Positions 15,901-30,373 of a stretch of DNA of 35,672 nt are shown piece by piece (positions within the stretch are counted from its first letter, which is position 1; each line of letters starts with the position of its first letter). Origin of the DNA: Candidatus Berkelbacteria bacterium (GTDB lineage: Bacteria; Patescibacteriota; UBA1384; XYA2-FULL-43-10; CAINNR01). The position numbers and the translations under genes were made by a program. The stretch is taken from assembly GCA_037128645.1 (NCBI GenBank), contig JBAXWD010000001.1, forward strand, positions 1-35,672, in the 5' to 3' direction. The notes beneath the pieces are model-generated. The model was not told the DNA's origin, did not search any database, and was given only the letters and a program-made list of their open reading frames with translations.

Positions 15901-16312
15901 TGAATATATACAACTTTGAATGATTTGGCTCTTTTGTTTTTCTAATTATTAAGCGGCCTTCTTTTATTGAATCTATGAAATATCTAATTTGTTCATAGTA
16001 CGCTTCTGAATCTAGTTCTTTGTGAGAAGTGGCTGTTTTTACAGAACCAATGTAGTTATTGGCTCTTTCGGAATCGTTTTTGGCTTGTAATCCAAGTTCT
16101 ACCAGTTGATCTGTTAACTGATCAACATTAAGGCCAACGAGTACATTCAACTTTATACTAGGGTTAAGTTTGAGGCATTCAAAAAGTTCAGCAATGCCAG
16201 AAAAGTAAAAAAAACCAACTAGAAATTTAAGCTCCTGGCTCTTAGAAGTAAGTTCGGAAATTCTATCGCGTAGCTTTCTTTCCTTGTTGTTGATGATATT
16301 TGCATTTGCCAT
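12950..16312 (-). CDS. fusion of an N-terminal PLD (HKD) nuclease domain and an SNF2-family helicase, 1120 aa
   Basis: HKD motif NHSKLYIF...ITGSSNLTRAGL. SNF2 motifs DVVGLGKS (I), IIIDEAHRFRN (II), LMTATPFNNSPADIYSLLKLF (III) and LLGTDKMSEGFNLNRAGSVINYDIPWNPTRVIQRVGRINRIG (V-VI). AAGGAA SD. Confidence 0.9.
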   Translation of the reverse strand: MANANIINNKERKLRDRISELTSKSQELKFLVGFFYFSGIAELFECLKLNPSIKLNVLVGLNVDQLTDQLVELGLQAKNDSERANNYIGSVKTATSHKELDSEAYYEQIRYFIDSIKEGRLIIRKTKEPNHSKLYIFKMNEDSKIIRESIFITGSSNLTRAGLVSQGEFNLEVSDSNSKEAEDFFDELWESSVKITENDVIKERLIKTLEQESIVAKITPFEAFALVLRNYVEYTKQQKAEQSLKLILEDAGYKPYQYQVDAVTQALAMIERYNGAIICDVVGLGKSVVGSLVGRMINKKGLILCPPGLIGDTNNKSGWKKYRKDFGLYSWEIKSSGNLEDAFDYVQNNDVDVIIIDEAHRFRNQDTRDHELLRGICKDKVVILMTATPFNNSPADIYSLLKLFIISGKSELTLNDDLDVEFSHYNKVFKDLSYIKKNIRSSDENKRKQAEAKYRSLFGEREISFEKVDKDVLGRAKSLAERIRSVIEPVTIRRNRLDLKNDPVYSKEVTELSEIADPPVEEFYELTEAQSKFYDEVIEDYFSENGKFKGAIYQPFRYQEGIDTDDVEALGQEGNRQSLIQKNLYDFMKRLLVKRFESSFGAFEKSINNFERVTKLCIDFVNKTGEFILDRKLIEKISQDDIEEVQKKLDEYTEVLEKGNYPKSYQRYKIDEFKQKDKFLEDMQSDLNIFAELKQKIQDLDLVANDPKIEKLEESINKIISGGIDNVKNRKVIIFTEYLDTANYLKPILENLFPGKVLSVTNDLNSKIDDVLKNFDADYKEQEDTYQILLGTDKMSEGFNLNRAGSVINYDIPWNPTRVIQRVGRINRIGKKVFEYLYIHNFFPTLKGADIIKSRQIAAEKMFMIHNVLGEDAKIFDADETPHAASLYDRVNENPENLEQESFQTKIRREYMELCKQNPNIVEKIAKLPNRVKVAKEYEKNILVTVIRKGLGFFIRTTDQSDLTSPVNECGVDQCYELIKCEPETTGLDLSVDFWKSYTKISDYKENLRRATSEQSVEVQAKNNLKYLLELQDDQLNPYKKFIESLLEDMYEYKTLSEYTQRTIKKLNFSSDAKSEESIKDIKDLKKLLGGDNYLDSIKERANKLTQDVIISIENQKGSE

Positions 16313-16575
16313 CTTTGTTCCTTGTCTGTTTACGATTTTGTTGCTTTCAGCGTACCACTTTACAGGGTAAAAATAAAGATTTACCGCTGTGTTTAATTAA
16401 GCTCCTTCTTTACTTTTTTGTCCAGTCCACCAATTTATGGCTGTTATGAAAAATCAGATTGAATCCTGACTGGATCCTTGCTTTTTCAGTTTAGATTTGC
16501 TAGATTGCGCTTGTACGCAAACAAGCTGTAAATTTCGTCAATTGCTTGATTAAAAGTGGAGGGGAGGGAGAATAT

Positions 16576-19506
16576 GTGCCAACAGGCCCAATCGATCCTC
16601 ATTTGCCTCCTGCAAGCTCAACACTACCTTCGATCTCAACATTTCAAGGCAGTTTTTTAACGGCCTATACTCCTTCTCCAAATGATAATAAGTTTGCTCT
16701 AGATCTATTACACGCAATCCAGAATCATACTCCATTAACTCTTTTACAAAAGATCTTTTTGGTTGTAGTCACAATACCCGGACCGATTGGTTGGAAACTA
16801 TCGTTTTTCAATTTCATAAGTTCGATCGGATCCACCGGTTCCAGTAGTTCGAACTCGCTGGCTCATTTTCTTATCATTTTAGCTGTCATCTGCATTGTTT
16901 TGATTCTTTTATTTTTGCTTCGCAAATTCGGCTGGCGATTCCTTGTTAAAAAACAACCTTTAATTTTTCTGGAATTAACCTTTCCCTCAATCACAACCAT
17001 AACCGCTAACACAACTGAGCAATTATTTACCTTGCTTCACTCTTTGGCAACACAGCAAAAATTTATTCATAAAATAATTGGGCATAAGAAACAATATGCG
17101 CTCGAGATTGTCGCCTCCAAAGAACAAGGAATCAGATATATACTAACTGTGCCGGATTCCGATTCTTCGTCTATTCAGAAAAGTTTGTTGTCATATTTGC
17201 CCGGACTAAAAATCAACAAAATCAAAGATTATCTACCGGCTGACCTTAATCCGCCAAAGAAAAATAAAAATTCTGTCAGACACCGCATCATCGAACTTAA
17301 ACTCTCCAATGATTATCTTTTGCCCTTGCAGGAATCAAAAACCCTCAAAGAACATGACCCGATTGCGTATCTAACCGGCAACATGACCAAACTGGAGCCC
17401 GATGAACTGATGGTTTTTCAAGTAGTTGTCTCTCCAATTACCAAATCCAGCCATAGCTCGGTTGTCCGGCATATCAATAAAATCAAACAGCGAATTTATA
17501 ATAAGCAAACTCTAGACGATAAACTTTTCGTCAATCACATATTGAATACGCTTAAAGTTTTTCAAATAATATTCATTGCCATTGCGAATTTTATCAAAGC
17601 GGTTGTCGTCTTTTTTGTTAGCCTGCCAATAGCTCTTTGGGATACAAAGGGTGAGAGTGTGCCTTTCTTCAAAAACGAGGCGAAAGTGATTGTAATCGAA
17701 GATTCTCTATCTCCCAGAGAACAAGAACTCCAAGTTGCAGTTAAGGAAAAAATTGACAAACCAATGTTTGAAACTTCACTTCGGCTGTTAATCTGTTCCG
17801 ATGACAAGGAAGGATGCAATTCCAGAGTCTCCGGTTTCCTGGCTTCATTCGGATCACTGAGCAGTACTTATCAAGCTTTGGTTTTGAAAGGTAAAAGCCT
17901 ATTCTCGCTTATTCAGCAACCGAAATTGGCTCTAGTAAGCAGACAAATATCGCTCTCAAATAACCCTATCCTGTCCGCTTCGGAGCTGACCGATATTTAT
18001 CATTTTCCGTATACCGAAACAACCAAGACTGAGGATCTGGTTAAATCCAAGAACCAGCCTTTGCCGGCTCCATTATCTTTTAAACAAACCAATCCGGAAT
18101 TTGATAATGTCTTCGCCAAAAATAGCTACGGTGGAACGGAAACTGTTGTCGGGCAGACTCTAAATGAGAGAAGACGCCATACATATATTTTGGGTGCTAC
18201 TGGCTCCGGTAAAACCACCTTGCTATCTACCATGATTTATCAGGACATCATAAACGGTAAAGGCCTGGCTGTGATTGATCCTCACGGACAATTGGTCGAA
18301 AAAATATTGTCGGTTATTCCCAAAGAGCGAATCAATGATGTGGTTTGGTTTGCTCCCGATGATGATGCTTATCCGATTGCTTTAAATCTGCTCGAACTGC
18401 CTAAAGATAATTTGTTAACTGCAAGCCAACTGCAGAAACAAAAGTCATTAGTGGCCAGCAGTATAATCTCCATTATTCAAAAGTTCTACGATAAAAAGTT
18501 CTTCGGTCCAAGAATGGAATATGTCCTACGGAATACAATTCTAACCGCTCTGGAAACTCCGGACCCGACGCTGGCTACAATTCTGGATCTTCTGACAAAC
18601 AAAAGCTACCGCAAGGAAATTATTAAGGGCTTGGAAAACAAGATATTAAAAGATTACTGGTTAAACGAATTTGAGAAACTGGGCAGCATGCAAAGAAACA
18701 ATGTCATTTCTCCAATCACCAACAAAATCGGTGGGATATTAGGCTCGCCGATCAATTACAATATACTGACACAACCGAAAAGCACCATCAATTTCGATCA
18801 AATAATGAACGAAGGAAAGATTCTGCTTTGTGATTTGTCCAAGGGGAAAATCGGCGAGGATGAATCAAGTTTCTTTGGCTCCCTGGTTATTGCCAAGATT
18901 CAGCTGGCGGCATTAAAAAGAGCCCAAATGCCCGAAGAAGAGCGGAATGATTTCTTTCTCTATGTCGATGAGTTTCAAAACTTTGCCACCCAGTCTTTTT
19001 CCGAACTGGTATCCGAAGCCAGAAAGTATCGGCTGGCAACAATCCTGGCCCATCAATCAATTTCTCAAATTGAAGACCGTGACATTATTAAAGTCATCTT
19101 GGCCAATGTCGCAACGGTCATTTGTTTTAAAACAGCCAACCCCGAAGACGAGCAATTTATCTTACCGATCTTTTCGCCCGAAGTCTCAAAACACGAGATC
19201 GGTAACCTTCCGCTTTATAACTTCTATATGAAAATATCAGTCGGCCAGGCCCAGGACACATTTTTAGCACAAGCGGACAACTTTACCGTTAAAGGCAGTG
19301 AGAAAACAGCGGAACTTGTGATTAATGAATCAAGAAAAAGATACGCAACAATTATTAACCAGACAAAGCAACGCAAAGAAAAACCTAAAGAAAAGGCAAC
19401 TGTTAAAAAGCCCGAAACGGCAAAAGCAAAGGTTGTGAAACCGCGAGAAAACAAATCAAAAGATACCAAACAAACTGGCAGTAATTTACTCCCGCGGCGG
19501 GAGTAG
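16576..19506 (+). CDS. type IV coupling protein-like (VirD4/TraD/TraG-type) membrane ATPase
   Basis: N-terminal hydrophobic segments (LAHFLIILAVICIVLILLFLL). Walker A YILGATGSGKTT, Walker B-like FFLYVDEFQNF, ILAHQSISQI, and a lysine-rich tail. The ORF track starts at TTG 16546. GTG at 16576 is preferred because the purine-rich SD GGAGGGGAGGGAG (16558-16570) sits 5 nt upstream. Confidence 0.78.
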   Translation: MPTGPIDPHLPPASSTLPSISTFQGSFLTAYTPSPNDNKFALDLLHAIQNHTPLTLLQKIFLVVVTIPGPIGWKLSFFNFISSIGSTGSSSSNSLAHFLIILAVICIVLILLFLLRKFGWRFLVKKQPLIFLELTFPSITTITANTTEQLFTLLHSLATQQKFIHKIIGHKKQYALEIVASKEQGIRYILTVPDSDSSSIQKSLLSYLPGLKINKIKDYLPADLNPPKKNKNSVRHRIIELKLSNDYLLPLQESKTLKEHDPIAYLTGNMTKLEPDELMVFQVVVSPITKSSHSSVVRHINKIKQRIYNKQTLDDKLFVNHILNTLKVFQIIFIAIANFIKAVVVFFVSLPIALWDTKGESVPFFKNEAKVIVIEDSLSPREQELQVAVKEKIDKPMFETSLRLLICSDDKEGCNSRVSGFLASFGSLSSTYQALVLKGKSLFSLIQQPKLALVSRQISLSNNPILSASELTDIYHFPYTETTKTEDLVKSKNQPLPAPLSFKQTNPEFDNVFAKNSYGGTETVVGQTLNERRRHTYILGATGSGKTTLLSTMIYQDIINGKGLAVIDPHGQLVEKILSVIPKERINDVVWFAPDDDAYPIALNLLELPKDNLLTASQLQKQKSLVASSIISIIQKFYDKKFFGPRMEYVLRNTILTALETPDPTLATILDLLTNKSYRKEIIKGLENKILKDYWLNEFEKLGSMQRNNVISPITNKIGGILGSPINYNILTQPKSTINFDQIMNEGKILLCDLSKGKIGEDESSFFGSLVIAKIQLAALKRAQMPEEERNDFFLYVDEFQNFATQSFSELVSEARKYRLATILAHQSISQIEDRDIIKVILANVATVICFKTANPEDEQFILPIFSPEVSKHEIGNLPLYNFYMKISVGQAQDTFLAQADNFTVKGSEKTAELVINESRKRYATIINQTKQRKEKPKEKATVKKPETAKAKVVKPRENKSKDTKQTGSNLLPRRE

Positions 19507-19524
19507 AAATTCAATACCTTTTGA

Positions 19525-19575
19525 GATCAAAATCGTTAAATATTTTGATCCCTACCTATACAAGTATGGTGTAGG
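19525..19575. repeat. two adjacent inverted repeats (9-bp perfect stem at 19525-19550; imperfect hairpin at 19551-19575) between the coupling-protein and relaxation-family genes
   Basis: gatcaaaat-cgttaaat-attttgatc, followed by cctacctatacaagtatggtgtagg. Confidence 0.5.
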
Positions 19576-19631
19576 TATGGATTGGTAAAAAAGTATATAA
19601 CTAACTACAAACTATTTCATCATCAAACTAA

Positions 19632-20405
19632 ATGACCAACTCACCAAACATAACTAAAAAACAACAACAGATTCTCCACCTACTATTTCAATTCAGATTT
19701 CTAAACCGTCCCCAAATTCAACAATTTCTAAAACACAAAGATCGTAGAGCAACAAACGATTTATTAAGTGATCTAGCAAACAAAGAATATATCGGTCGCA
19801 TTTATATTGAAACATTTCCAGAAAAGACCAAACCGGCAGTCTACTATCTGATTAAAGCAGGAGTACACTTTCTGAAATCAAAAGGATTTGACCAAAAGCA
19901 ATTGCATAAATTGTATTATGAAAACAAGCGATCGGAGAATTTTATCAGCCAATCATTACTGCTGGTCGATGTTTATCTCGATCTTTCAAACCGCAAAGAC
20001 GACAAGGCAAAGTTTACAATGGCAATTGCCAGCGATTACCCGAGTCACAGTTTAGGCGAATTCCTCGGGGATCTTTTGCCCAGCGCTTACATCGAACAAG
20101 AAAGTAACGAAGACACGGAGCATTATTTTTTGGAAATTCTTCCCGATGTACCAATTGAGAGACTGAGGCCAAGAATAAGAAAATACCTAGATTTTTACGA
20201 CAGCAGCGAATGGGAAGGTGAAACCAGCGAAGATTTTCCCACAGTTATTATGATTTGCCCGGATGTTAGTACCTTAATTTATGTTAAGCGATATTTGAAA
20301 AGAAAGTTTATCGAAATGGACGGGGAATCCTTGATTATTCACTTAACTACAATTGATAAATTTAAGGAGCATGGTCTAACCGGCGACATCTGGGAGAAGG
20401 TTTGA
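19632..20405 (+). CDS. replication-relaxation (Replic_Relax) family protein, 257 aa
   Basis: The N-terminal winged-helix-like pattern ITKKQQQILHLLFQFRFLNRPQIQQFLKHKDRRATNDLLSDLANKEYIGRIY matches my recollection of that family. It lies immediately downstream of a coupling ATPase. Confidence 0.55.
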   Translation: MTNSPNITKKQQQILHLLFQFRFLNRPQIQQFLKHKDRRATNDLLSDLANKEYIGRIYIETFPEKTKPAVYYLIKAGVHFLKSKGFDQKQLHKLYYENKRSENFISQSLLLVDVYLDLSNRKDDKAKFTMAIASDYPSHSLGEFLGDLLPSAYIEQESNEDTEHYFLEILPDVPIERLRPRIRKYLDFYDSSEWEGETSEDFPTVIMICPDVSTLIYVKRYLKRKFIEMDGESLIIHLTTIDKFKEHGLTGDIWEKV

Positions 20406-20431
20406 TATATTTATAAGAAGAAAGGCTTAAT

Positions 20432-21082
20432 ATGGAAATTGAAATCGAAGAATATCTGGCACTATCGGCTCCATACACAAAACACTGGATTCAAAAAATT
20501 GTTGACGCATGTTCTGAGCGGATAGATTTTAAGGATGCTAAAATCGGAATCTATTTGGTTTCTAAATCAGAAGAGTTGGAGGACTTAAACGGCGCCAGAG
20601 GTTACTGCCCCTCCGGTTCGCTTATTGAAATATCTGTCGACTTACTTAATCCTCATTTGGATTTTGACTACATTAAACTAACTATAGCTCATGAGCTTTA
20701 TCACCTGGCACGACGGCAATCCGGTATCAAGACTGGCGAAGACACGGTTTTGGAATGCCTGATAAGCGAAGGGCTGGCTGATAGATTTGTCTACGAAACC
20801 TATGGGCTACCTCCCGTCTGGGTTTCAAAAATTGATAAAACAGAGGCAATTAAACTATTAAAGAAAATATCTCCTATTTTAGACAAAAAAATTGACGATG
20901 AAATTTATAGCGATTGGTTTTCAAGAGGTTCTGAAAAACTCAAAATTAGAAAATGGTCGGGCTACGATCTCGGTTATGCATTGGTTTTGCAAATACTAAA
21001 GAAAGACAAAAAGTTAAGTTCGATCTCATTCCTTGATGTTCCTGCTAAGGAAATCGCCGAAATTACCGTGTTGTTACAGTAA
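20432..21082 (+). CDS. predicted Zn-dependent metalloprotease (HExxH; DUF2268-like), 216 aa
   Basis: TIAHELYHLARR contains HExxH. GAAAGG SD. Confidence 0.55.
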   Translation: MEIEIEEYLALSAPYTKHWIQKIVDACSERIDFKDAKIGIYLVSKSEELEDLNGARGYCPSGSLIEISVDLLNPHLDFDYIKLTIAHELYHLARRQSGIKTGEDTVLECLISEGLADRFVYETYGLPPVWVSKIDKTEAIKLLKKISPILDKKIDDEIYSDWFSRGSEKLKIRKWSGYDLGYALVLQILKKDKKLSSISFLDVPAKEIAEITVLLQ

Positions 21083-21193
21083 ATTACTGCCATTGACTAG
21101 AGAAAGCTCTGTTTACTTGGTTGACAACCAATGATGATATTCGGGAGGATAGAATAGACGCTGAGATCTGGGGATAATCTTTGTTCTCTAGCT

Positions 21194-21232
21194 AAATGGA
21201 AACCTACAAACTGTTAGTGGTTTCCATTTTTT
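21194..21232 (+). terminator. Rho-independent terminator after the metalloprotease gene
   Basis: An 11-bp stem aaatggaaacc/ggtttccattt with a 14-nt loop, running into a T tract. Confidence 0.6.
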
Positions 21233-21257
21233 GTTGACTTTTATTTTATAATTTGCT

Positions 21258-21622
21258 AGTTTGAAATTAGTCGCAGATGTAGCTCGAGCACTGGAAGGGA
21301 GAAGCCTTTGGGCTGACAGTGTCGTTTGACACGCGAAGCTGATTGATCAGCAACCTTAGCCACCTGCTATTAAGCGCCGCCTTCATGGGGTTGACCAAAA
21401 TAGTAGACCTAATTTGGACCCTAGAGTCCAAGATCAATCAGTTGTTGCACAGCGTGCAAGTTGGTGTTTTCACACGCGTGTGGGAAAAAACCAGAGACGC
21501 ATCTGCTGCGCTGAGCTCCTCGCATAGGGGGTCGGCGCACGCCATCATTTAAGGCGACTGCTCAGGCGGTTGCTATCCTATCCGAGAGCTGATCAACGCA
21601 CCGATCAGCTCTCTTTACTTTT
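21258..21622 (+). ncRNA. candidate structured non-coding transcript (~360 nt), family not recognised
   Basis: G+C-rich, ORF-poor segment between an upstream terminator and its own terminator. Several local hairpins: gtgtc-gtt-gacac, gctgat-tg-atcagc, cacacgcgtgtg. The only ORF (21343-21552) starts at TTG with no SD. Confidence 0.3.
21584..21622 (+). terminator. Rho-independent terminator (plus strand)
   Basis: An 11-bp perfect stem gagagctgatc/gatcagctctc, loop aacgcacc, then tttactttt. Confidence 0.6.
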
Positions 21623-21631
21623 AATTAAGAT

Positions 21632-21665
21632 AAAAAAACGCCCGTAGCTGGGTAAGCTGCGGACG
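21632..21665 (-). terminator. Rho-independent terminator for the 149-aa gene (minus strand), convergent with the previous one
   Basis: The minus strand reads cgtccgcagc-ttaccca-gctacgggcg (10 positions, one mismatch, one GU) followed by TTTTTTT. Confidence 0.55.
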
Positions 21666-21688
21666 ATGGGGGCTAGCGGTTATTGCCG

Positions 21689-22138
21689 CTAGTAGTTCTG
21701 ATGTGGTTCCGGCACTTCTTCCTGACTCGCTGAAGGTGGCTCCTCTTTGGCACGTTGCCTTGGCAGATAGGGTAACTTCTCTCCGGTGTAGACATCTTCC
21801 GTTCTACAGAGCTTCACTAGGCCCTTAGTTGGGTGACGATGATAGAGCCAGAATTCGTCTTCGACGTTGACGTCGAGGAGCTCGTATTCGACAAGTTCCT
21901 TACCATGGATCGCCATGATCCCTGTCTTCGTCAGGTCGGCCAGAAATTGTTCTATCTGGTCGATGTTCATCAAAGTCTCGGTAAATTCGATCCGAAGTGC
22001 TACTCGGTCGAATCGCCTGAGAAAATGAAAGAACCACTCTTCTACGCTGGGCAGGCCATAACAGCCCGCATTTTCGATGATTCTACAGGCATCGAGATAT
22101 GGTAGCCCTGTAGTGTCCATCAATATTGCGTGAGGCAC
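21689..22138 (-). CDS. hypothetical protein (149 aa), GTG start
   Basis: ORF-track protein. AGGAGG lies 9 nt upstream of the GTG. Intermediate G+C content. No domain recognised. Confidence 0.6.
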   Translation of the reverse strand: MPHAILMDTTGLPYLDACRIIENAGCYGLPSVEEWFFHFLRRFDRVALRIEFTETLMNIDQIEQFLADLTKTGIMAIHGKELVEYELLDVNVEDEFWLYHRHPTKGLVKLCRTEDVYTGEKLPYLPRQRAKEEPPSASQEEVPEPHQNY

Positions 22139-22305
22139 CTTAATCGACCTCCTGTCAGTGATGTTCTATCCGCAATCACTTTATTCCAAAAAGCTCAAAT
22201 AGTCAATGATCTCGAGCCCTATGTTTTATGTAGAGAAGTATGATGAAGTATGAACTTTGACCACAAAAAAGGCCTGAGAACTTAAAGGCTCCCAGGCCTA
22301 ATTGA

Positions 22306-22626
22306 TCAGTACTCTTCGGCTAACATGACGGTCATCACACGCTTGCAGGTCGGTGAGAGCGGATCCTCAAAACAGGTCAACTGGTCGTTGTAATAATCAA
22401 TCTTCCAGAAGACCTTTTCACCATGCCATTCTATCTTACCCATATCGTGCTCAAAATAAGGATCATTGGCCTCGCTAAAATCGTTAAAATCTCTGACCTT
22501 TTGCATTAACCCAATGACATCAGGTAAGTCAGCTGCTCCGCAAGTCATCGTAACCCCGAAGCCTAACTTTCTAAACACATCGTTTTTGTCTGCTATTTCT
22601 GCATTCTTTACAATCTCTAATTCCAT
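22306..22626 (-). CDS. DUF3768-family protein (106 aa), a family typical of plasmids and conjugative elements
   Basis: Pattern VRDFNDFSEANDPYFEHDMGKIEWHGEKVFWKIDYYND...RVMTVMLAEEY matches the DUF3768 consensus as I remember it (NDP..EHDFG...FWKIDYYD...RVLTIMLA.EY). AGGAGG SD. Confidence 0.72.
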   Translation of the reverse strand: MELEIVKNAEIADKNDVFRKLGFGVTMTCGAADLPDVIGLMQKVRDFNDFSEANDPYFEHDMGKIEWHGEKVFWKIDYYNDQLTCFEDPLSPTCKRVMTVMLAEEY

Positions 22627-22687
22627 ATTATCCTCCTATTATTAATACCCTCTGCGATTCGACCTACCGCCTGTCTAGACATAGAAC

Positions 22688-22764
22688 AGAACAATGGCTG
22701 AATTCGGGTCAAGGTGGAGCACCCCACGAGATGAACGACCTTGAGGCGAAACAGCCATTGTTCT
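22688..22764. repeat. 13-bp perfect inverted repeat separated by 51 nt, with a nested 6-bp hairpin
   Basis: agaacaatggctg (22688-22700) pairs with cagccattgttct (22752-22764). Inner tcaagg/ccttga pair. Confidence 0.6.
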
Positions 22765-23181
22765 ATACAATTGGAAGACATGGCGGGAGAAATCTCCATA
22801 ATTATCTGGTGTATTCGCGAGCCAGTATCTTTTGCGTAAATGCAATTGGAGTAAAAGTTGCTGAGTGAGCAATGATGTGCGGATGAATAAGCAAGCACTC
22901 TCTGAAAGAGTGTGCGAAGCGCATGAAGAAGCACAACCAACCAAGCCTTGATTCCTGTTTTCAAGGCAAGATTTCAAGACGAATAAGCGTCTAGCGAGGC
23001 ACGAGATTGTCGCGAAATGAGTTGAAGAAAACGAGCCTTATTGAACTTTAAACTTATCAACCCCATATACGCTTTTTGGATAGACTTTATCGGCACTCGT
23101 GGTTCAATCGGCTGATCAACGAGTCCGCATTTCCATTTTCGGATCAATATATATGCCATGCCTGATAACCCGAGAACATTT

Positions 23182-23211
23182 TTGACTGGAAATCCGTAAT
23201 ATTGTGATAAT
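23182..23211 (+). promoter_or_regulatory. sigma70-like promoter (TTGACT, 18 nt spacer, GATAAT with upstream TG)
   Basis: -35 at 23182-23187, -10 at 23206-23211. Confidence 0.4.
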
Positions 23212-23253
23212 ATTGATACAGAATCAGGCTCAGAGATAAAACCTACACGAATG

Positions 23254-23282
23254 TTGACTTTTTCTCTCTGATATGGTATGAT
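23254..23282 (+). promoter_or_regulatory. sigma70-like promoter (TTGACT, 17 nt spacer, TATGAT with TGn extension) upstream of the DGR target gene
   Basis: -35 at 23254-23259, -10 at 23277-23282. Confidence 0.5.
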
Positions 23283-23313
23283 TCAAAGTTAATTTATGTA
23301 CCTTTACAAGATT

Positions 23314-23362
23314 GGAACAAGCATTTTGCTAATAATCACTTTGTTATCAAAATGCTTGTTCC
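23314..23362 (+). promoter_or_regulatory. 14-bp perfect stem-loop in the target-gene leader; the right arm contains the ATG at 23352
   Basis: ggaacaagcatttt (23314-23327) pairs with aaaatgcttgttcc (23349-23362). 21-nt loop. Confidence 0.5.
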
Positions 23363-24317
23363 AGACAAGGGACACAGCCTGCCTTCAGGCAGATCACATA
23401 GTGGAAGGATGATGACGATGTCCAATGAGGCATTGATCCCGTCCGTGACGCACCCAAAACGTCGTGAAGTGCTGCGCAACTGCGCAGTCGGTCTGGATAG
23501 GGCCGGACTGGACGAGGATGGACTCCAGCAGATCGTGCACCGCGCTGGCGAATTGCAGCAGGGCATGATCGAGTTGGTCAAGCGCCTGTCGCTTTCCAAC
23601 CAGTTCGCGAGCGAAGAGACGGCGTCCAACTACACCTACCCACCTGAGTACAAGGGCCCGAAGCCGATCGAGGAACAGATCACGGCACTCGCCAAGATGC
23701 TCGACCTCGACCCGGCCTCCGCCCTCGCGTTCGCAATGAACCTACCAGCTCTTCCCGAAGGTGCCGAAGGATGGTTTGCCATCCCGTCGCCCGTCGCACT
23801 GGCTGCCAAGCACTTTGCCAATCTGGCAGACCCCGCCGAGCAGAACTGCGCCGGAATCAGCCTGATCCACGCCAAGATCGCGGCATCGCGGAAGTTCTAC
23901 AACTACCGCGAAGGCCAGATCACGACGACACAGTTGCGGGTTGCAATCCGCACAGCCGAGGCGCTGGCCCAGATCACCGAGACCCAGAAGGGCGACATCC
24001 TGATCATCGCTGCCCAGCTCGGGCTTCGCCACCGCGGCAAGTCCGTTCGTCGGGCACGTGAAGTGATGAGCGCCAATGAGTTCGGTCTCGGCTCACTGAT
24101 GATCGGCTCCATTGTACTGACTCACCCCGAGCGGTTTGTCCGCTGGGAGCAGTTGCACATGGATTGCGCCGGCGATGAGTTCAGTCCGGGGGCCGGAGGC
24201 GACTTCGTCAACGCGCCGTACTTACGCTTCGGCGACGGCGAGGTCCGGTTCAGCACCTACTGGGTCAGCAGTGCCCACGCCCACTATGGCTCGGCCTCGG
24301 CTTTCCTCCCGCAGTAG
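23352..24317 (+). CDS. DGR target (variable) protein, G+C-rich, no signal peptide seen; the C-terminal ~43 aa are encoded by the VR
   Basis: Long ORF whose last 130 nt form the VR. The start is uncertain: ATG 23352 has no SD and lies inside the hairpin. The ATGs at 23409, 23412 and 23418 follow GGAAGG (23403-23408), and 23418 has the best spacing. Confidence 0.8.
   Translation: MLVPDKGHSLPSGRSHSGRMMTMSNEALIPSVTHPKRREVLRNCAVGLDRAGLDEDGLQQIVHRAGELQQGMIELVKRLSLSNQFASEETASNYTYPPEYKGPKPIEEQITALAKMLDLDPASALAFAMNLPALPEGAEGWFAIPSPVALAAKHFANLADPAEQNCAGISLIHAKIAASRKFYNYREGQITTTQLRVAIRTAEALAQITETQKGDILIIAAQLGLRHRGKSVRRAREVMSANEFGLGSLMIGSIVLTHPERFVRWEQLHMDCAGDEFSPGAGGDFVNAPYLRFGDGEVRFSTYWVSSAHAHYGSASAFLPQ
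24186..24315 (+). repeat. DGR variable region (VR)
   Basis: 130-nt gap-free alignment to 24746-24875. Of the 21 mismatches, 19 lie where the TR has A. Confidence 0.88.
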
Positions 24318-24381
24318 AAGTTTGTACCTTGTTTCTTAAATCCCTTGAGACTTTTGGCATCTTGATACTTGTCTCTCGGGT

Positions 24382-24397
24382 ACCGCCGATAGGCGGT
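24382..24397 (+). promoter_or_regulatory. GC-rich 6-bp hairpin with a 4-nt loop (accgcc-gata-ggcggt) downstream of the VR
   Basis: Seen directly, 67 nt after the VR end. In the BPP-1 DGR paradigm a GC-rich hairpin with a 4-nt loop lies downstream of the VR. Confidence 0.35.
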
Positions 24398-24408
24398 TCG
24401 ACACATCC

Positions 24409-24446
24409 GGGCTACCAGTCACCATACTGGTAGCCCGTTTTCTTTT
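24409..24446 (+). terminator. Rho-independent terminator of the target gene
   Basis: An 11-bp perfect stem gggctaccagt/actggtagccc, loop caccat, then gttttctttt. Confidence 0.6.
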
Positions 24447-24745
24447 GCAAAATTAAGTAAATATGGTATATACTCTAAACGAAAGTAGGCTAATGCACAG
24501 TCGTCTAAGGATTGCTGTCGCCGAAATTTCAAGTCAACAAAACAGATCGGAATTTTAGTGTTTACGGATACTAAAAGTGCATCTGTGTTGAGGAGATACT
24601 GCTTGCCCTTGCCTGGTGCAGGTGTCGCTTCGGCGACTGCTGCCAAATAAAATACAGAAAAGAGAATATATAGTTTGGTTCTCCCGAGGAGAGCTAAAGG
24701 CAAAATTCAATTTTCAGTGCACATAGATGGGCAGAGGGCAATTTA

Positions 24746-24875
24746 CCGGAAGCCGATGGCGACTTCGACAACGCGCCGTACTTCAACTTCAACGACGGCA
24801 AGGTCAAGTTCAACACCAACTGGGTCAGCAATACCAACGCCAACTATGGCTCAGCCTCGGCTTTCCTCCCGAAGT
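24746..24875 (+). repeat. DGR template region (TR)
   Basis: Invariant, A-rich copy of the VR. In the VR reading frame it is rich in AAC/AAT/AAG codons (...FNFNDGKVKFNTNWVSNTNANYGSASAFLPK). Confidence 0.88.
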
Positions 24876-24949
24876 CTCTCCTTAATTAAAGAAAATACGC
24901 CCAGTCCGCCAAACAGCGGATCAAGCGTATTTTCTTGTTCTTTTTGTGG

Positions 24950-25297
24950 CTATTCTTTGGTTGATTTAATCCAGCCACCGAGCATACGACCGATTTCGTC
25001 GAGATCCATTTCAATCGATGTATAAGTTTTAAGCTCTATTGTTTTAACATCTTTCATCAAACGGACAAAAACCTTTAACAAGCTGAGGTTGGAACTGGCA
25101 TCTATCAGAGATGGAAGTTTCTCGTCCTTACCAAGTTGGCTGGCCTTGAGAATGCCCTCAATAACTTTCAAAAGATAATTTTCTGATTTGAGAAATATTG
25201 AGTAGCGATCCTGTTTTGGCACTTTGGTGCCGAGAGTGTGGAATTGTTTATATAATTCATAAGCCTTTTTAAAAATCGGGATGTCAAATTCCTGCAT
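24950..25297 (-). CDS. avd: DGR accessory variability determinant (Avd-like four-helix-bundle protein), 115 aa
   Basis: Size, composition and the FKKAYELYKQFHTLGTKVPKQDRYSIFLKSENYLLKVIEGILKA pattern fit the Avd-like four-helix-bundle family. It lies next to the TR and RT. GAAAGGAAC SD. Confidence 0.75.
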   Translation of the reverse strand: MQEFDIPIFKKAYELYKQFHTLGTKVPKQDRYSIFLKSENYLLKVIEGILKASQLGKDEKLPSLIDASSNLSLLKVFVRLMKDVKTIELKTYTSIEMDLDEIGRMLGGWIKSTKE

Positions 25298-25310
25298 AGG
25301 TTCCTTTCAT

Positions 25311-25952
25311 ATGAAATATTACAAAAATATATTTGAAAAAATTATCAACCCGAACAATTTGTTCACCGCTTGGGATGAGTTTAAAATAGGCAAACTCCGC
25401 AAGACCGATGTTTTAGAATTCGTAGCTGGGCTGGAAGAAAATATCTTTAAACTCTACCGTGATCTAAAATACCACAGTTACAAACACGGTGTCTATCGGT
25501 CATTCTATATTACCGACCCGAAATTAAGAGAAATTAACAAGGCAATGGTCAGAGATAGAGTTTTACATCATGCCGTTTTTCAGATTCTATACCCGATGTT
25601 TGAGCCGACATTCATTTCAAATTCTTTTTCTTGCCGTGACGAAAAGGGAAATCACAAGGGCGTTGATTATCTAGAAAAAATAATCCGGGAGGTTAGCAGA
25701 AACTATACCCGAGATTGCTTTGTTATGAAATGCGATATACGAAAATTCTTTGGTTCGGTCGATCATCGGATTTTATTGGAAATTATTCAGCGAAAAGTTA
25801 AAGATGAAGATTTTAATTGGCTGATTAAGGAAATCATTGGCAGTTTTGGTTCAAAAACCGACTATCAACCACAATTACAACTGTTCGATTTTCGAGTCGA
25901 AAATCCAGAGAGAGAGAGAAAGAAAGAGCAGCCTTCGGCTGCTTGGGGGTAG
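25311..25952 (+). CDS. DGR reverse transcriptase, N-terminal fragment (motifs 1-3), ending at an in-frame TAG after a G5 run
   Basis: FYITDPKLREI, DRVLHHAVFQILYPMFEPTFISNSFSCRDEKGNHKG, VMKCDIRKFFGSVDHRILL. ATG 25311 is preferred over the track start at 25281, which would overlap the avd start. Confidence 0.85.
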   Translation: MKYYKNIFEKIINPNNLFTAWDEFKIGKLRKTDVLEFVAGLEENIFKLYRDLKYHSYKHGVYRSFYITDPKLREINKAMVRDRVLHHAVFQILYPMFEPTFISNSFSCRDEKGNHKGVDYLEKIIREVSRNYTRDCFVMKCDIRKFFGSVDHRILLEIIQRKVKDEDFNWLIKEIIGSFGSKTDYQPQLQLFDFRVENPERERKKEQPSAAWG

Positions 25953-26431
25953 GTATTCCCATTGGCAATTTAACCAGTCAACTCTTCGCTAATGTATATA
26001 TGAATGAGTTTGACCAGTTTGTAAAACATAAATTAAAAGTCAAGCATTATTGCCGGTATACTGATGATTTTGTTGTCGTATCTGATAATCGTGAATATCT
26101 CCAGGACTTATTGCCGAAAATTGAATCGTTTATTAATGAAAATCTGAAACTCAAGTTACATCCGGAAAAAGTTTCAATCCGTAAATATCAGCAAGGTGCT
26201 GACTTTCTCGGCTATGTGATTTTGCCTCATCATCGCTTAGTCAGAACAAAAACCAGGAAAAGGATATTTGAAAAGCTCAAAAACAGGGTTAAGGAATTCA
26301 AAAATGGGCAAATTAGCGAAGAAAAACTTAAACAATCACTGAATTCGTTTCTGGGTGTTTTTTCACATGCCGACTGTCATGATTTAGAGCAGGAGCTGAT
26401 AAACAAATTTTGGTTTTGGCTTTCAGAATAA
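25943..26431 (+). CDS. DGR reverse transcriptase, C-terminal fragment (motifs 4-7) in the -1 frame
   Basis: DGR-diagnostic IGNLTSQ (25961-25981), catalytic YTDD (26057-26068), ADFLGY. This frame is open from 25829, so it overlaps the end of the N-terminal fragment. Confidence 0.85.
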   Translation: MGVGIPIGNLTSQLFANVYMNEFDQFVKHKLKVKHYCRYTDDFVVVSDNREYLQDLLPKIESFINENLKLKLHPEKVSIRKYQQGADFLGYVILPHHRLVRTKTRKRIFEKLKNRVKEFKNGQISEEKLKQSLNSFLGVFSHADCHDLEQELINKFWFWLSE

Positions 26432-26843
26432 AATTCTGATAACTCAGCAATCCTTGACAAATATTTTCAAAATTTAAATTTATTGCAATACTTGATATGA
26501 TGGAGCAGGAATAGTGAGAGTTGGTATTTTTCGAAGTTTACTTCGGAAACATGGTTGCGCATTAAACCCGCCTCGTGCGGTCAAAAACAACGGTGGCTTA
26601 CGGGCATATCAAGAGCCGCTTTGCGGGAGCGATTAAAGGCAGACAAGCGACGAAATCTTGTTTCCTTTAAAAGCTTGCTATTCCAACAAAAAGCTTTCAA
26701 TCATGGAAGCTTTTTGTTATCTGTGTGTGCGTGGATTAATCCGATTAATTCATACCGGTCAATCCTATGACATTCCTAACTGGCAACTAATAATTTACTT
26801 ATCTAGTACTTACTATTTTAAATAGAATTATTTGAACACCCTC

Positions 26844-26873
26844 TTGACACTGTGCATATATACTTAGTATACT
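26844..26873 (+). promoter_or_regulatory. sigma70-like promoter (TTGACA, 18 nt spacer, TATACT) for the recombinase operon
   Basis: -35 at 26844-26849, -10 at 26868-26873. Confidence 0.5.
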
Positions 26874-26904
26874 GTTTATATATACACACTTGGGAGGGTG
26901 TTCA

Positions 26905-27261
26905 ATGTTAGATCAAATGCAACTCACGGATCTGCAAAACATGGCTGTTGAAAGTAAAACAGCTGCCAAATTTGCAATTGACCTCTCAAAGAACGCTACA
27001 ACAAACATACAAAACAGTTTTGCTGTCTCGGATAGAAAATCGCTTGAAAGAACTCTCAGTAATATCTTCCCGTCACAAAAAGATGAGAACAATCTTCAAA
27101 GGGCAAGAAGAATCCTTGGAGATCTTGCGACTTCTTTGTCAGACCCGGAACTTGAAACATATTTAGTCGAATTTGAATATCTCATAGATTCATGGCTCGA
27201 TGAATTTGAGAAAAATATTTTCAATGACAAAACATTAATGCAATTATTAAAGGAGGGATAG
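26905..27261 (+). CDS. hypothetical protein (118 aa) abutting the recombinase gene
   Basis: ATG 26905 is preceded by GGGAGGG (26892-26898); the track start at TTG 26890 is less likely. Its TAG stop is immediately followed by the recombinase ATG. Confidence 0.6.
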   Translation: MLDQMQLTDLQNMAVESKTAAKFAIDLSKNATTNIQNSFAVSDRKSLERTLSNIFPSQKDENNLQRARRILGDLATSLSDPELETYLVEFEYLIDSWLDEFEKNIFNDKTLMQLLKEG

Positions 27262-28845
27262 ATGGACAATTCGTTATCGAAAAAAAGTTTGGCTGATTTA
27301 GGTAAAGCAGTTATCTATTTGCGAGTTTCAACCGAAGAGCAGGTTGATAATTATTCACTAGAAACGCAAGAGAACATTTGCAAAAAAGAAGCTGAGCGAA
27401 TGAAAATTGAAGTTGATCGAGTCTTTCGAGAAGAAGGTCGATCAGCCAAAACAATTACCGGTCGACCGGCATTGGTTGAGTTACTGGAATACTGCAGAAA
27501 AAACAAGCGGGAGATCGGAGTTGTTATCGTCTATCGCTTGGATAGAATCTCAAGACAAACGGCTGATTATCTGGCAATTAGAAAAAAGCTTGCCGAGTGC
27601 GAGATCGCACTCATATCAGCCACGGAGCCAACAGGTAACTCGCCTACAGAAAAGTTTGTAGAGACCATGCTGGCAGGTTTCGCACAGATGGACAATGATG
27701 TACGTTCTGAGCGGTCTAAGAACGGCATGAGAGCCAGATTCTTGGCTGGCCTAAGCAATGGCTATGTCCCGATGGGATATCTTAACCGAAACGGCTATGC
27801 GATCAAAGATCCGGAAACATTCGATCAAATGAAAAAAGCTTGGGATTTAATGGCAACCGGCACAAAATCTCTTCGAGGGATAACTGACCTTCTTATTAAG
27901 CAAGGAATGAAAGGAGGTCGTAGAAACAACAAGAAAGATCACATTCTACGTCCACAAACGATGAATGCCATCTTTCGCAATAAATTCTACACCGGCAAAA
28001 TCATTTCGAAGAAATACGAGCTCGAAGTTCAAGGGCAGCATCCTGCCATGGTCACCGAAGAACAGTTTTATAAGGTGCAATCAATCCTTGACGGTCGAAA
28101 TACTCAGATTGCTTCACCATTGACCAGAAGAAATGTCGATAACCCTGATTTTCCACTCAGGCGTATTGTAAAATGCACAAAATGCGGCGCTTCGATGACT
28201 GGTGGTTGGTGCAAAGGAAAACGAAAACACTATGCTTTCTATTTCTGTCTTAACAAGTGTAAGGGTTTAAATACTTCTAAGGCAAAAATCGACGAAGAAA
28301 CAACAAAGACACTTGATGGGATTAAACTTCATGACAAATCTGTTGATCTGTTCAACGCCTGGCTGCGCAGAAAATACTACGAACGACTTTCTTCATTACA
28401 GAAAAGACGGGATGTCGCTGATATCGAGTTAAAAAAGCTTTACGAGTTCCGACAGTCGCTAATAGAAAAGAATATCTCCGGAGTTTATTCGGACGATATA
28501 TTCAAAGAGCAGAACCAGATTGTCCAAGATAAGATAAAAATCCTTCAGATAACAAAAAATGATGACATGATCCAAAAGTATAATTTGGAAGCCATCACTT
28601 TATTTGTGAAATCAAAGCTGGACAATGTTACACGAACCTTCGAAAAATCCAATCTGCAACAGAAGAGAATGCTCTTGTGTTCAATATTCCCCTCTGGACT
28701 GCACTGGAACGGAAGTACCTACTTGAACACCCAGATTAGTGTGTTCTACACCGAGTTATTACGTTTAAATAAGGGGGGTGTCGTGTTTGGTGGACCCAAG
28801 CGGATTCGAACCGCTGACCTCTTCGCTGCCAGCGAAGCGTTCTAG
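27262..28845 (+). CDS. large serine recombinase (integrase-type), 527 aa
   Basis: Resolvase catalytic domain AVIYLRVSTEEQ...YRLDRISRQ, recombinase domain, Cys cluster CTKCGASMTGGWC...FCLNKC, and a C-terminal region compatible with a coiled coil. AGGAGGGA SD. The last 58 nt are antisense to tRNA-Ala. Confidence 0.88.
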   Translation: MDNSLSKKSLADLGKAVIYLRVSTEEQVDNYSLETQENICKKEAERMKIEVDRVFREEGRSAKTITGRPALVELLEYCRKNKREIGVVIVYRLDRISRQTADYLAIRKKLAECEIALISATEPTGNSPTEKFVETMLAGFAQMDNDVRSERSKNGMRARFLAGLSNGYVPMGYLNRNGYAIKDPETFDQMKKAWDLMATGTKSLRGITDLLIKQGMKGGRRNNKKDHILRPQTMNAIFRNKFYTGKIISKKYELEVQGQHPAMVTEEQFYKVQSILDGRNTQIASPLTRRNVDNPDFPLRRIVKCTKCGASMTGGWCKGKRKHYAFYFCLNKCKGLNTSKAKIDEETTKTLDGIKLHDKSVDLFNAWLRRKYYERLSSLQKRRDVADIELKKLYEFRQSLIEKNISGVYSDDIFKEQNQIVQDKIKILQITKNDDMIQKYNLEAITLFVKSKLDNVTRTFEKSNLQQKRMLLCSIFPSGLHWNGSTYLNTQISVFYTELLRLNKGGVVFGGPKRIRTADLFAASEAF

Positions 28846-28864
28846 CCAACTAAACTATGGGCCC
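28788..28864 (-). tRNA. tRNA-Ala (anticodon GGC), CCA encoded
   Basis: The reverse complement is GGGCCCATAGTTTAGTTGGCTAGAACGCTTCGCTGGCAGCGAAGAGGTCAGCGGTTCGAATCCGCTTGGGTCCACCA. It folds by hand into a 7/4/5/5 cloverleaf with anticodon loop CT-GGC-AG, T-loop TTCGAAT and the G3:U70 alanine identity pair. Confidence 0.9.
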
Positions 28865-28919
28865 AAAAATCAATCGTTGATAAAATATTAGCACAAATTG
28901 AGCTCAAGTTCAACTGCAA

Positions 28920-28997
28920 CTACTTTGATTGGTTAAAGGCCCACCAAAGCAGAATCGCAATAATTATCGCAGTAATCAGCCACCAGTACCAAACCAC
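28920..28997 (-). CDS. possible 25-aa hydrophobic micro-protein
   Basis: GGTGGAGG SD 5 nt upstream of GTG. Translation VVWYWWLITAIIIAILLWWAFNQSK forms a single TM-like helix. Confidence 0.3.
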   Translation of the reverse strand: MVWYWWLITAIIIAILLWWAFNQSK

Positions 28998-29019
28998 GTT
29001 AGCCTCCACCTAAATTAGC

Positions 29020-29541
29020 TTATATCAACCCTAAACTTTTTATCTGGCTAAGTGCATTAAGAGTTATTCGTTTCTTGCCCTGTTGGTACATTTCATTGCA
29101 CAGAACCAATGCTTCTGCGTGTGTGACCCATTTATAGTCATCAAACTCAGTTTCTGTAATATCAATTTCCGAGGTGTCGGAGGTTGCAGCAATAAAGAAG
29201 TATTGCTTGCCTTTCATAAAAATAATTTCTCCTTCATCATTTTTTAGCTCGCGTGAATTCTGAGTTTGCTTTGGAAAATCAATTTCATCGCTACCAACCA
29301 GGCTTATATCGCTTGCTACCGAGGCTGAAAACTTTCCGCCAAGCTCTTCTGTCATTTCCCGTGTAAATGAATCATCAATGTCCTCACCATTGTCAATTCC
29401 ACCCTGAGGTAATTGCCAAAGATCGTAAATTTTTTTATATAAAAATAGAATCTTTCTATCATTTATAAAACAACCAACAACTTGAGGCCGAAAACCGCTA
29501 TTTCGCACGTCGTCAATTTCAGCAATTGTGAGTTTTTCCAT
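29020..29541 (-). CDS. Nudix hydrolase, 173 aa
   Basis: Nudix box GGIDNGEDIDDSFTREMTEELGG fits GX5EX7REUXEEXGU. Confidence 0.85.
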   Translation of the reverse strand: MEKLTIAEIDDVRNSGFRPQVVGCFINDRKILFLYKKIYDLWQLPQGGIDNGEDIDDSFTREMTEELGGKFSASVASDISLVGSDEIDFPKQTQNSRELKNDEGEIIFMKGKQYFFIAATSDTSEIDITETEFDDYKWVTHAEALVLCNEMYQQGKKRITLNALSQIKSLGLI

Positions 29542-29548
29542 TTACAGA

Positions 29549-30373
29549 TTATTTTTTAATAACTCTAATAGCCGAATCGGGGCAAAAACGGAAACAATTT
29601 CCACAGGCTATACATTTTTCGATATCAATATCAGGAATAGGTGTGCCATAAACACCTAGTGTTTTGCCAAAAGACAGTGCCTTAACCGGACATTTAAGTA
29701 CGCAAATTCCGCAACCCTTGCAATACTTTGGCACAATAACAGCCGTTCGTTGCGAATTCTTTCTAATAACTATTTCATCGCAAGTATCATACTCTGGCTT
29801 AGTAAATTTCTTAGTTTCAAGTTGAAAATCATATGCAAAATCAAAAGCTAGCTTTGATTTGTCTGCTAAATCCTTATTTTTAGCAAACTTTTTTCCTAAC
29901 TGAGTAGAAATTATCTCCCACATCGCGTTTTTGGGGTAATCAAGAAAATTATTCGCCAAGACTCCGAGAGCTAAAATATTTTGATTTTTATTGCCAAATT
30001 GCTCCTCAGCAAGTTTAGTAGCGGGTATTGCAAAAACTCTGGAGTTATTAAGAGAAAATTTTTGCCTAGAAATTGTAGATGAATCGAAAAGTAGTTGAGT
30101 CCTCGATCCAATATAGCCTTCAATGGTTTTAATGGCCCGTCGGCGTAAAACCATTACAATGTCGGCGGTATCGAATTTGGGATAGGTAATTTCTGACTTG
30201 GAAAATTGGATAAAAGATACCGAAGGGGTTCCACGTTGCTCAGGACCGAATTGGGGAATGTAACTGACGAAAAAGCCAGCAGACACAAGAGCGGTCGACA
30301 AAACCTTGGCAATTGTTTGAATGCCCTGGCCACCTTCACCAGCAAGAACAATTTTTGTTATTTCATTTTTCAT
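29549..30373 (-). CDS. 2-oxoacid:ferredoxin oxidoreductase gamma subunit fused to a 2x[4Fe-4S] delta/ferredoxin domain
   Basis: IVLAGEGGQGIQT gamma-subunit N-terminus. CKGCGICVLKCP and CIACGNCFRFCP clusters. ATG 30373 (MKNEITK...) is preferred because the track start at 30430 would overlap the beta gene by 53 nt. Confidence 0.8.
   Translation of the reverse strand: MKNEITKIVLAGEGGQGIQTIAKVLSTALVSAGFFVSYIPQFGPEQRGTPSVSFIQFSKSEITYPKFDTADIVMVLRRRAIKTIEGYIGSRTQLLFDSSTISRQKFSLNNSRVFAIPATKLAEEQFGNKNQNILALGVLANNFLDYPKNAMWEIISTQLGKKFAKNKDLADKSKLAFDFAYDFQLETKKFTKPEYDTCDEIVIRKNSQRTAVIVPKYCKGCGICVLKCPVKALSFGKTLGVYGTPIPDIDIEKCIACGNCFRFCPDSAIRVIKK

Follow-up and report, generated by a model that had tools for sequence, protein, structure and literature searches.

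The prototype of the diversity-generating retroelements (DGRs) is that of Bordetella phage BPP-1, which comprises a variable region (VR) in the gene mtd, the gene avd, a template region (TR) and the reverse transcriptase (RT) gene brt. The phage target is a tail fibre with the VR at its C-terminus. Its TR is rich in AAC codons, VR and TR differ by adenine-specific mismatches at codon positions 1 and 2 and by a constant 3' difference of the IMH*/IMH type (initiation of mutagenic homing), a GC-rich inverted repeat lies downstream of the VR, and the RT carries the motifs IGNxxSQ and YxDD. In the cryo-EM structure of the phage ribonucleoprotein (RNP), sequences upstream and downstream of the TR form a duplex and a stem-loop follows the TR, the latter being a common feature of DGRs (bioRxiv 10.1101/2023.10.23.563531). 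Here we analyse a locus of Candidatus Berkelbacteria, a member of the Candidate Phyla Radiation (CPR), that resembles the phage element in these respects, with candidate counterparts of the IMH difference and of the inverted repeat and a predicted RNA duplex and stem-loop, and differs from it in the nature of its target. The DNA analysed, referred to below as the window, is a stretch of 35,672 nt (contig JBAXWD010000001.1 of assembly GCA_037128645.1, forward strand). We read the locus, with high confidence, as a CPR-restricted DGR whose RT frame is broken and which is most likely off, and the repeat tract at the break as a simple-sequence-repeat (SSR) switch.

DGRs of CPR bacteria have been described before. 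One DGR clade (clade 2) is restricted to Patescibacteria/CPR and has targets without recognisable domains (Roux et al. 2021, PMC8144416), and a "CPR set" with unclassified VR types (UVR classes) was defined in a survey that discarded candidates with premature stops (Wu et al. 2018, PMC5758913). The Berkelbacteria locus shares with these elements the host group, a cellular rather than viral location and a target with no transmembrane segment or known domain. It is most simply a member of this known group, an assignment made by description. Because the locus fits that group, the DGR finding itself is ordinary: the call adds one more curated example of a known CPR lineage, which is useful and unsurprising. 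A further set of CPR/Patescibacteria DGRs was reportedly presented by Paul et al. in 2017.

The second class of described systems to which the locus compares is the SSR contingency loci of Neisseria, Haemophilus, Campylobacter and Helicobacter, classically phase-variable genes of host-adapted pathogens that encode surface antigens or restriction-modification systems. The RT tract described below shares with them an intragenic repeat whose unit is not a multiple of 3 nt, the occurrence of all three phases in nature, near-identical alleles one unit apart, and purifying selection on the rest of the gene. Unlike in these loci, the gene switched here would be a mutator enzyme, the DGR RT, in CPR bacteria, and the tract in the window is interrupted.

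The literature searched (Roux et al. 2021, Wu et al. 2018 and other papers, Paul et al. 2017 lying outside the search) contains no mention of the structured leader RNA, the convergent avd, the GA tract, the CTTGA array or the GC anomaly of the target that are described here, and no link between DGR RTs and repeat-tract switching was found in it. The repeat-tract switch, the TR RNA structured on its 5' side, the CTTGA array and the GC-rich target thus go beyond the descriptions found there and are worth a specialist look.

The TR/VR repeat pair

The VR (24186–24315, forward strand) forms the last 43 codons of the target gene and aligns without gaps over 130 nt to the TR (24746–24875, forward strand), which lies between open reading frames (ORFs) at an offset of 560 nt. 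An earlier note, made from the sequence alone, had reported this repeat with 21 mismatches, 19 of them at TR adenines, of which the TR holds 34. Recomputation reproduced the alignment, the offset and each count; the upstream copy is, as described there, the 3' end of a 321-residue ORF (23352–24317), the downstream copy is intergenic, and the translations given for both copies are correct. The note had adenines replaced by G, C or T, and all three occur (A>G 12, A>C 5, A>T 2). The only two mismatches at non-A sites are at 24757 (T versus A) and 24784 (C versus A), where the note had placed them, and each adjoins an A mismatch. Because the VR is in frame with the target ORF, the mismatches fall mainly at codon positions 1 and 2 (17 of the 19 A mismatches). 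Read in the VR frame, the TR contains seven AAC codons and one AAT codon. The TR/VR homology ends abruptly at both borders, and the pair is the sole long direct repeat in 22000–28000 and in 17000–30000. The 24-nt 3' core of TR and VR occurs twice in the whole window, and no further VR was found within the window.

A simple duplication that then diverged, or a pseudogene piece of the target 3' end, with the A bias imposed by some other strand-specific process, would also leave a repeat here, and two of the 21 mismatches do lie at non-A sites; beyond these and the existence of the repeat itself, nothing favours this origin. An even spread of mismatches over the four bases was not seen. Chance would produce such an A bias with a probability of about 1e-11 (hypergeometric p = 9.8e-12 for 19 or more of the 21 mismatches on 34 of 130 positions), adenine is replaced by all three other bases, genes for an RT and Avd adjoin the repeat, the same asymmetry is seen in 32 related pairs, and in one pair of related loci (L087/L111, below) the TR is invariant while the VR changes. 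We regard the non-retroelement origin as effectively refuted and give it practically no credence.

The related pairs come from 80 related loci taken from GTDB genomes. Self-comparison of these loci gave 33 TR/VR pairs, nearly all with mismatches only at TR adenines; in 32 related pairs pooled, 600 of 619 mismatches are at TR adenines. One A mismatch is of a different kind. In the final codon, the TR reads AAG and the VR CAG (24872/24312, A>C), a difference fixed in almost all of the 32 related pairs, so that it is more likely a constant IMH*/IMH-type difference than a product of random mutagenesis. It sits just 3' of an A-free, GC-rich stretch that the earlier note had likened to an IMH element on the strength of its invariance. 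That argument does not carry, since the TR has no adenine there and the stretch cannot vary; the fixed AAG/CAG difference is the better IMH-like marker. The DGR call of that note is well supported by the A-specific TR/VR pair, the adjacent Avd and DGR-type RT, and the presence of the same cassette in dozens of CPR genomes. The orientation of avd, the split of the RT gene and the structured RNA about the TR are absent from the note.

Avd and the order of the cassette

The gene avd (24950–25297, reverse strand, 115 residues, annotated as "four helix bundle protein") converges on the TR RNA and diverges from the RT gene. Its product matches the bAvd family PF22296 (E 2.4e-17, 63.8 bits, cut-off 40) and aligns to NF033474 with E 2.9e-21 at 75.7 bits (cut-off 80). 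The orientation of avd is alike in all related cassettes, the conserved order being target with VR, about 430 nt, TR, avd on the opposite strand, and RT. In four loci (L004, L050, L078 and L080), the TR-avd-RT block is inverted and lies upstream of the target. In contrast to BPP-1, the TR precedes avd and the two lie on opposite strands, and for this reason the TR RNA cannot include avd sequence.

The reverse transcriptase is split at a (GA)n tract

The RT gene is not an intact ORF; it carries a −1 frameshift at 25906–25952. The N-terminal part (25311–25952, forward strand, 213 residues) contains motifs 1–3 and ends at a TAG codon, while the C-terminal part (25943–26431, forward strand), in the −1 frame and open from 25829, contains the DGR-type motif 4 IPIGNLTSQ, the YTDD motif and the thumb. 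Both halves match RVT_1. Removal of one GA unit gives a 372-residue RT, and the frame-repaired RT aligns over 96–98% of its length with 135 phage RT records, those of Bordetella phages included. The change of frame coincides with AGAGAGAGAGAGA-AAGAAAGAG followed by a GC hairpin (25906–25943). Specifically, a degenerate (GA)n tract (25906–25928, forward strand), made of a pure run at 25907–25919 and then AAGAAAGAG, is directly followed by the hairpin AGCAGCC-TTC-GGCTGCT (25927–25943; −12 kcal/mol). The RT of BPP-1, unlike this one, carries no (GA)n tract.

The break is real, because five further assemblies from other samples share the same frameshift; TR and frameshift are identical wherever these assemblies cover them. 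Since the RT frame is broken (−1) at the (GA)n tract, the DGR in this genome is most likely switched off at present. This bears on the earlier statement that the cassette has been active on this locus: it holds for the past, for which the A-specific mismatches speak, and fails for the present, the RT being frameshifted and the VR identical among the assemblies that cover it.

The GA tract across related elements

A (GA)n run of 13–35 nt occupies the same site, between motif 3 and motif 4, in 11 of 26 related RTs; the others are intact. A metagenome scan for (GA)5 followed by motif-4 codons added at least 119 loci, and tracts of 10–51 nt occur at this one RT site in more than 110 loci (the tract-bearing relatives are L001, L013, L019, L030, L031, L049, L055, L061, L063, L077 and L086–L204). 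RT phase was taken as the distance from motif 3 to motif 4 modulo 3, and tract-bearing RTs were de-duplicated at 95%. Of 20 RTs lacking a tract, 19 are in frame; the remaining one (L045) has a G10 run at the same site. The tract-bearing RTs form 106 clusters (phase counts, here and below, are among the matches listed), with 23 in frame, 45 at +1 and 38 at +2. Tract length changes across the family by multiples of 2 nt.

Phases are mixed within three clusters of at least 95% identity. Tract length differs between otherwise identical alleles in L087 and L121 versus L111, L159 versus L172, and L129 versus L153. The clearest comparison is that of L087 with L111. The two loci are identical over about 2.9 kb, covering RT, avd, TR, leader and most of the target, their only differences being one GA unit (2 nt) and 19 positions of the VR, of which 18 fall on TR adenines. 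L111 has a single RT ORF of 366 residues, and the RT of its twin L087 is split. There is thus recent VR turnover at TR adenines in this lineage.

At one further locus, L104, the GA tract is directly followed by a G10 run, so that two simple repeats adjoin at the same RT site.

The best reading of the tract, as judged from sequence comparison, is that it serves as a contingency-locus-type on/off switch of the RT. A competing explanation is that the DGR is decaying: activity lay in the past, the frameshift simply inactivated the gene, having arisen at a repeat prone to mutation, the tract has no regulatory role and the element is a relic. The window itself offers some grounds for it, as the RT is split identically there and in the five further assemblies, the VR is identical where covered and the tract is degenerate; among the relatives, about 78% of tract-bearing RTs are out of frame. 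Inactivation is also frequent among DGRs in general, over half of the candidates in one survey having been inactivated by stops or truncations (Wu et al. 2018, PMC5758913). The out-of-frame loci do not otherwise look like relics. In every one examined, the RT halves (the tract aside), avd, the TR and the leader RNA are intact. Purifying selection on both RT halves between out-of-frame lineages is strong (dN/dS, the ratio of nonsynonymous to synonymous rates, is 0.03–0.11 where computable, with dS saturated), and A-specific VR changes are as many in out-of-frame loci as in in-frame loci. In addition, pairs with identical flanks differ in phase with one member in frame, and a different repeat, the G10 run of L045, occupies the same RT site. 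We therefore think decay rather unlikely, though it deserves more serious thought than the other alternatives.

Alternatively, ribosomes could change frame or RNA polymerase could slip at the GA tract to yield full-length RT, in which case the DGR would be active. Such recoding would draw on the hairpin behind the tract or on the GGGGG-TAG site at 25945–25952, where the first ORF ends G GGG G|TAG and a −1 slip of tRNA-Gly would reach the frame of the second ORF. Behind the tract, the window and some relatives have a stable hairpin (−12 kcal/mol), and in-frame alleles are under-represented. Most tract-bearing RTs of the family lack the hairpin (19–34 of 121 have it), and the shift needed is +1 in 45 clusters, −1 in 38 and none in 23. 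Because shifts of both signs are needed, no single frameshift signal fits the family, and a single programmed-frameshift signal is ruled out as a general mechanism. The VR is moreover identical in all assemblies of the window's population that cover it. To our knowledge, (GA)n is not a slippery motif, which also counts against recoding. We consider recoding quite improbable.

Several points weigh against the reading as a whole, the DGR and its switch. The steps of homing, cDNA synthesis and switching are inferred here. Fewer tracts are in frame than the one third expected (22%, p 0.006), a deficit that fits a costly ON state and fits recoding or decay as well. The window's population lacks VR or tract variation at the consensus level where the further assemblies overlap, and the VR is identical in the three other assemblies that cover it (L081, L082 and L085). 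The tract of the window is interrupted, with 13 pure nt within a 23-nt degenerate tract, and is a degenerate version of the pure 23-nt tract in the relative L171. Its reversibility is therefore doubtful; the switch in this genome may be partly decayed and locked off, and this copy could be a young pseudogene. Finally, the fold of the target cannot be assigned, Foldseek searches of PDB and BFVD having given no significant match (none below E 0.6).

Taking the switch reading to the family as a whole, we see about an even chance that a large branch of CPR DGRs has its RT gated by a hypermutable (GA)n tract, occasionally a poly-G tract, with most cells off, and that these elements use a permuted RNA whose 265-nt 5' leader, in place of a 3' spacer, organises the RNP. 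A slip of one repeat unit would then turn the RT on or off, and targeted hypermutation would itself be phase-variable. A tract switch in the RT would be a simple possible answer to how DGR mutagenesis is regulated, the elements being costly if always on. If the switch is true, surveys that drop "broken" RTs have removed elements that are switched off and functional. The discarding of candidates with premature stops by Wu et al. would have removed most tract-bearing RTs.

A conserved structured RNA predicted to carry the TR

The TR would be transcribed as its own small RNA, from a promoter at 24445–24474 through a 265-nt leader and the 130-nt TR to a stem-loop terminator. The promoter-like site (24445–24474, forward strand) reads TTGCAA, 18 nt, TATACT. 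Thirty aligned loci have in common a conserved −10 box, a conserved stretch of about 265 nt before the TR, the TR, the conserved GAAGUCUCUCC and a stem-loop with a T run.

The leader (24481–24745, forward strand) is predicted by RNAalifold from the 30 loci to be highly structured. Helices P1 (24488–24522) and P2 (24544–24585) are followed by P3 (24603–24614 with 24729–24741), which encloses the hairpins P4 (24618–24643) and P5 (24657–24715); all are on the forward strand. A long-range duplex (helix 6) is predicted between 24587–24596 and 24877–24886, on the same strand. Its 3' strand (UCUCUCC...) begins 2 nt after the TR, so that the leader would pair with the 10 nt just behind the TR and close the TR into a loop. 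Three of the four pairs of this duplex covary. In total, 72 pairs are predicted, with compensatory changes in 48, and for the 60 pairs outside the TR 93.5% of the alignment cells are paired. The covariation score is 0.64, compared with 0.27 for shuffled alignments (0 of 500 reach the observed value) and 0.12–0.18 for slid controls. Folded by itself, the window sequence gives all alignment-predicted helices in its minimum free energy (MFE) structure, with a z-score of −5.6.

Searched with a covariance model of the P3–P5 domain, 40 genome loci each yield a single hit, as do 37 metagenome loci whose retrieval had relied on the RT tract and not on the RNA. The leader keeps its position relative to the TR in the four inverted cassettes. 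Rfam gave no match at the TR RNA at either gathering or permissive thresholds.

After the TR, a stem-loop followed by a T run (24889–24936, forward strand) is present in every related locus. Transcription of the TR RNA, and of avd from the other strand, would end at this stem-loop, which is also a candidate Avd-binding element.

The predicted long-range duplex and stem-loop after the TR are the elements shared with the BPP-1 RNP. The main structured RNA differs in position: it is 265 nt long and 5' of the TR here, whereas the phage has a 140-nt spacer 3' of the TR. Unlike the phage RNA, the TR RNA here is predicted to have its own promoter and terminator. Because the large structured part lies 5' of the TR and avd is convergent, the arrangement of the DGR RNA is permuted. 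By analogy with the Bordetella phage system, the RT together with Avd would copy the TR into cDNA with misincorporation opposite adenines, a step in which the leader may have a role in priming. The conserved leader offers a second, differently arranged DGR RNA on which the generality of the phage RNP architecture can be tested.

Sequences 3' of the VR

Directly after the target stop codon lies an array of about six degenerate CTTG(A) octamers (24318–24380, forward strand). The array is kept in 24 of 24 related VR 3' flanks, those of inverted-cassette loci included, with a CTTG density of 3.0 per 80 nt against a background of 0.35 and a modal spacing of 8 nt. It possibly has a role in target-site recognition. 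Further downstream, the sequence contains a GC-rich inverted repeat, ACCGCC-GATA-GGCGGT (24382–24397), and hairpins of the CCGCC-N4-GGCGG type are found at the same place in many relatives. This repeat is a candidate counterpart of the hairpin/cruciform that follows the IMH in the Bordetella phage DGR. Array and hairpin travel with the target gene and not with the TR block. A terminator-like hairpin with a T run (24408–24437, forward strand) would end the target transcript.

The target gene and protein

The target gene (23418–24317, forward strand) encodes 299 residues as annotated by NCBI and matches MEI6143983.1 ("hypothetical") exactly; in-frame ATG codons upstream of the annotated start are at 23352, 23409 and 23412, and the longest ORF is the 321-residue one given above. 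More than 2400 homologues of about 297–300 residues were found, essentially all in CPR, and none has a Pfam domain. No phage homologue was found. For the window's protein, profile searches of Pfam, NCBIfam and PDB gave no match, and no signal peptide was detected. Thus, in contrast to the tail fibre of the phage, the target is cellular and without recognisable domains.

Across the family, the last 45 residues, corresponding to the VR, are hypervariable on a fixed scaffold, ...DCxGDEFxPxADGxFxxAPxFxFxxGxVxFxxxxVxxxxxxxGSxSxFLxQ. In an active element, the cDNA would replace the last 43 codons of the target and recode about 15 residues on this scaffold. An AlphaFold2 model built from a 143-sequence alignment that includes distant paralogues reached a predicted local distance difference test (pLDDT) score of 93 and a predicted template modelling (pTM) score of 0.84; with 32 close homologues only, the pLDDT was 53. 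Several of the weak Foldseek matches are C-type-lectin-like folds, namely TvpA (2y3c, itself a DGR target), snaclecs and PvdO.

The target gene is exceptionally GC-rich. It has 62% GC overall and 78% GC at third codon positions (GC3), the genome having about 37% GC and the RT, avd and recombinase genes a GC3 of 37–39%. In 78 of the 80 related loci, the GC content of the target is more than 5 points above that of its flanks; no such excess is seen for RT and avd. Depletion of adenine was considered as the cause and ruled out, as A exceeds T on the coding strand. Both the GC3 excess of the target and the CTTGA array are family-wide and may bear on how the cDNA finds or replaces the target.

Some relatives have two target genes in tandem (L001, 219–2306; L030, 3248–5310; L060, 4925–6891). 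In L030 as in L060, the single TR matches each of the two VRs, with mismatches at A only; L001, whose TR/VR pairs are unscored, appears alike. L044 encodes a paralogue of the target (7133–8029) with 28% identity, the C-terminus of which does not look diversified.

Genomic setting

To the right of the cassette, a large serine recombinase gene (27262–28845) overlaps with its 3' end a tRNA-Ala(GGC) gene on the opposite strand (28788–28864). The recombinase gene and an ORF at 26890–27261 accompany the DGR in the close relatives L030, L100, L171 and L175. No att repeats of the tRNA-Ala end were found within the window. The cassette looks as if it sits in a mobile island, to which the serine recombinase beside tRNA-Ala and the genes on its left given below belong; the genes to the right of the tRNA are housekeeping genes.

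The region to the left of the cassette (9471–20405) looks like a conjugative/defence island, with genes for an Eco57I-type methylase (9471–12953), a PLD-SNF2 helicase (12950–16312), a TraG/VirD4-like coupling protein (16546–19506) and a replication-relaxation protein (19632–20405).

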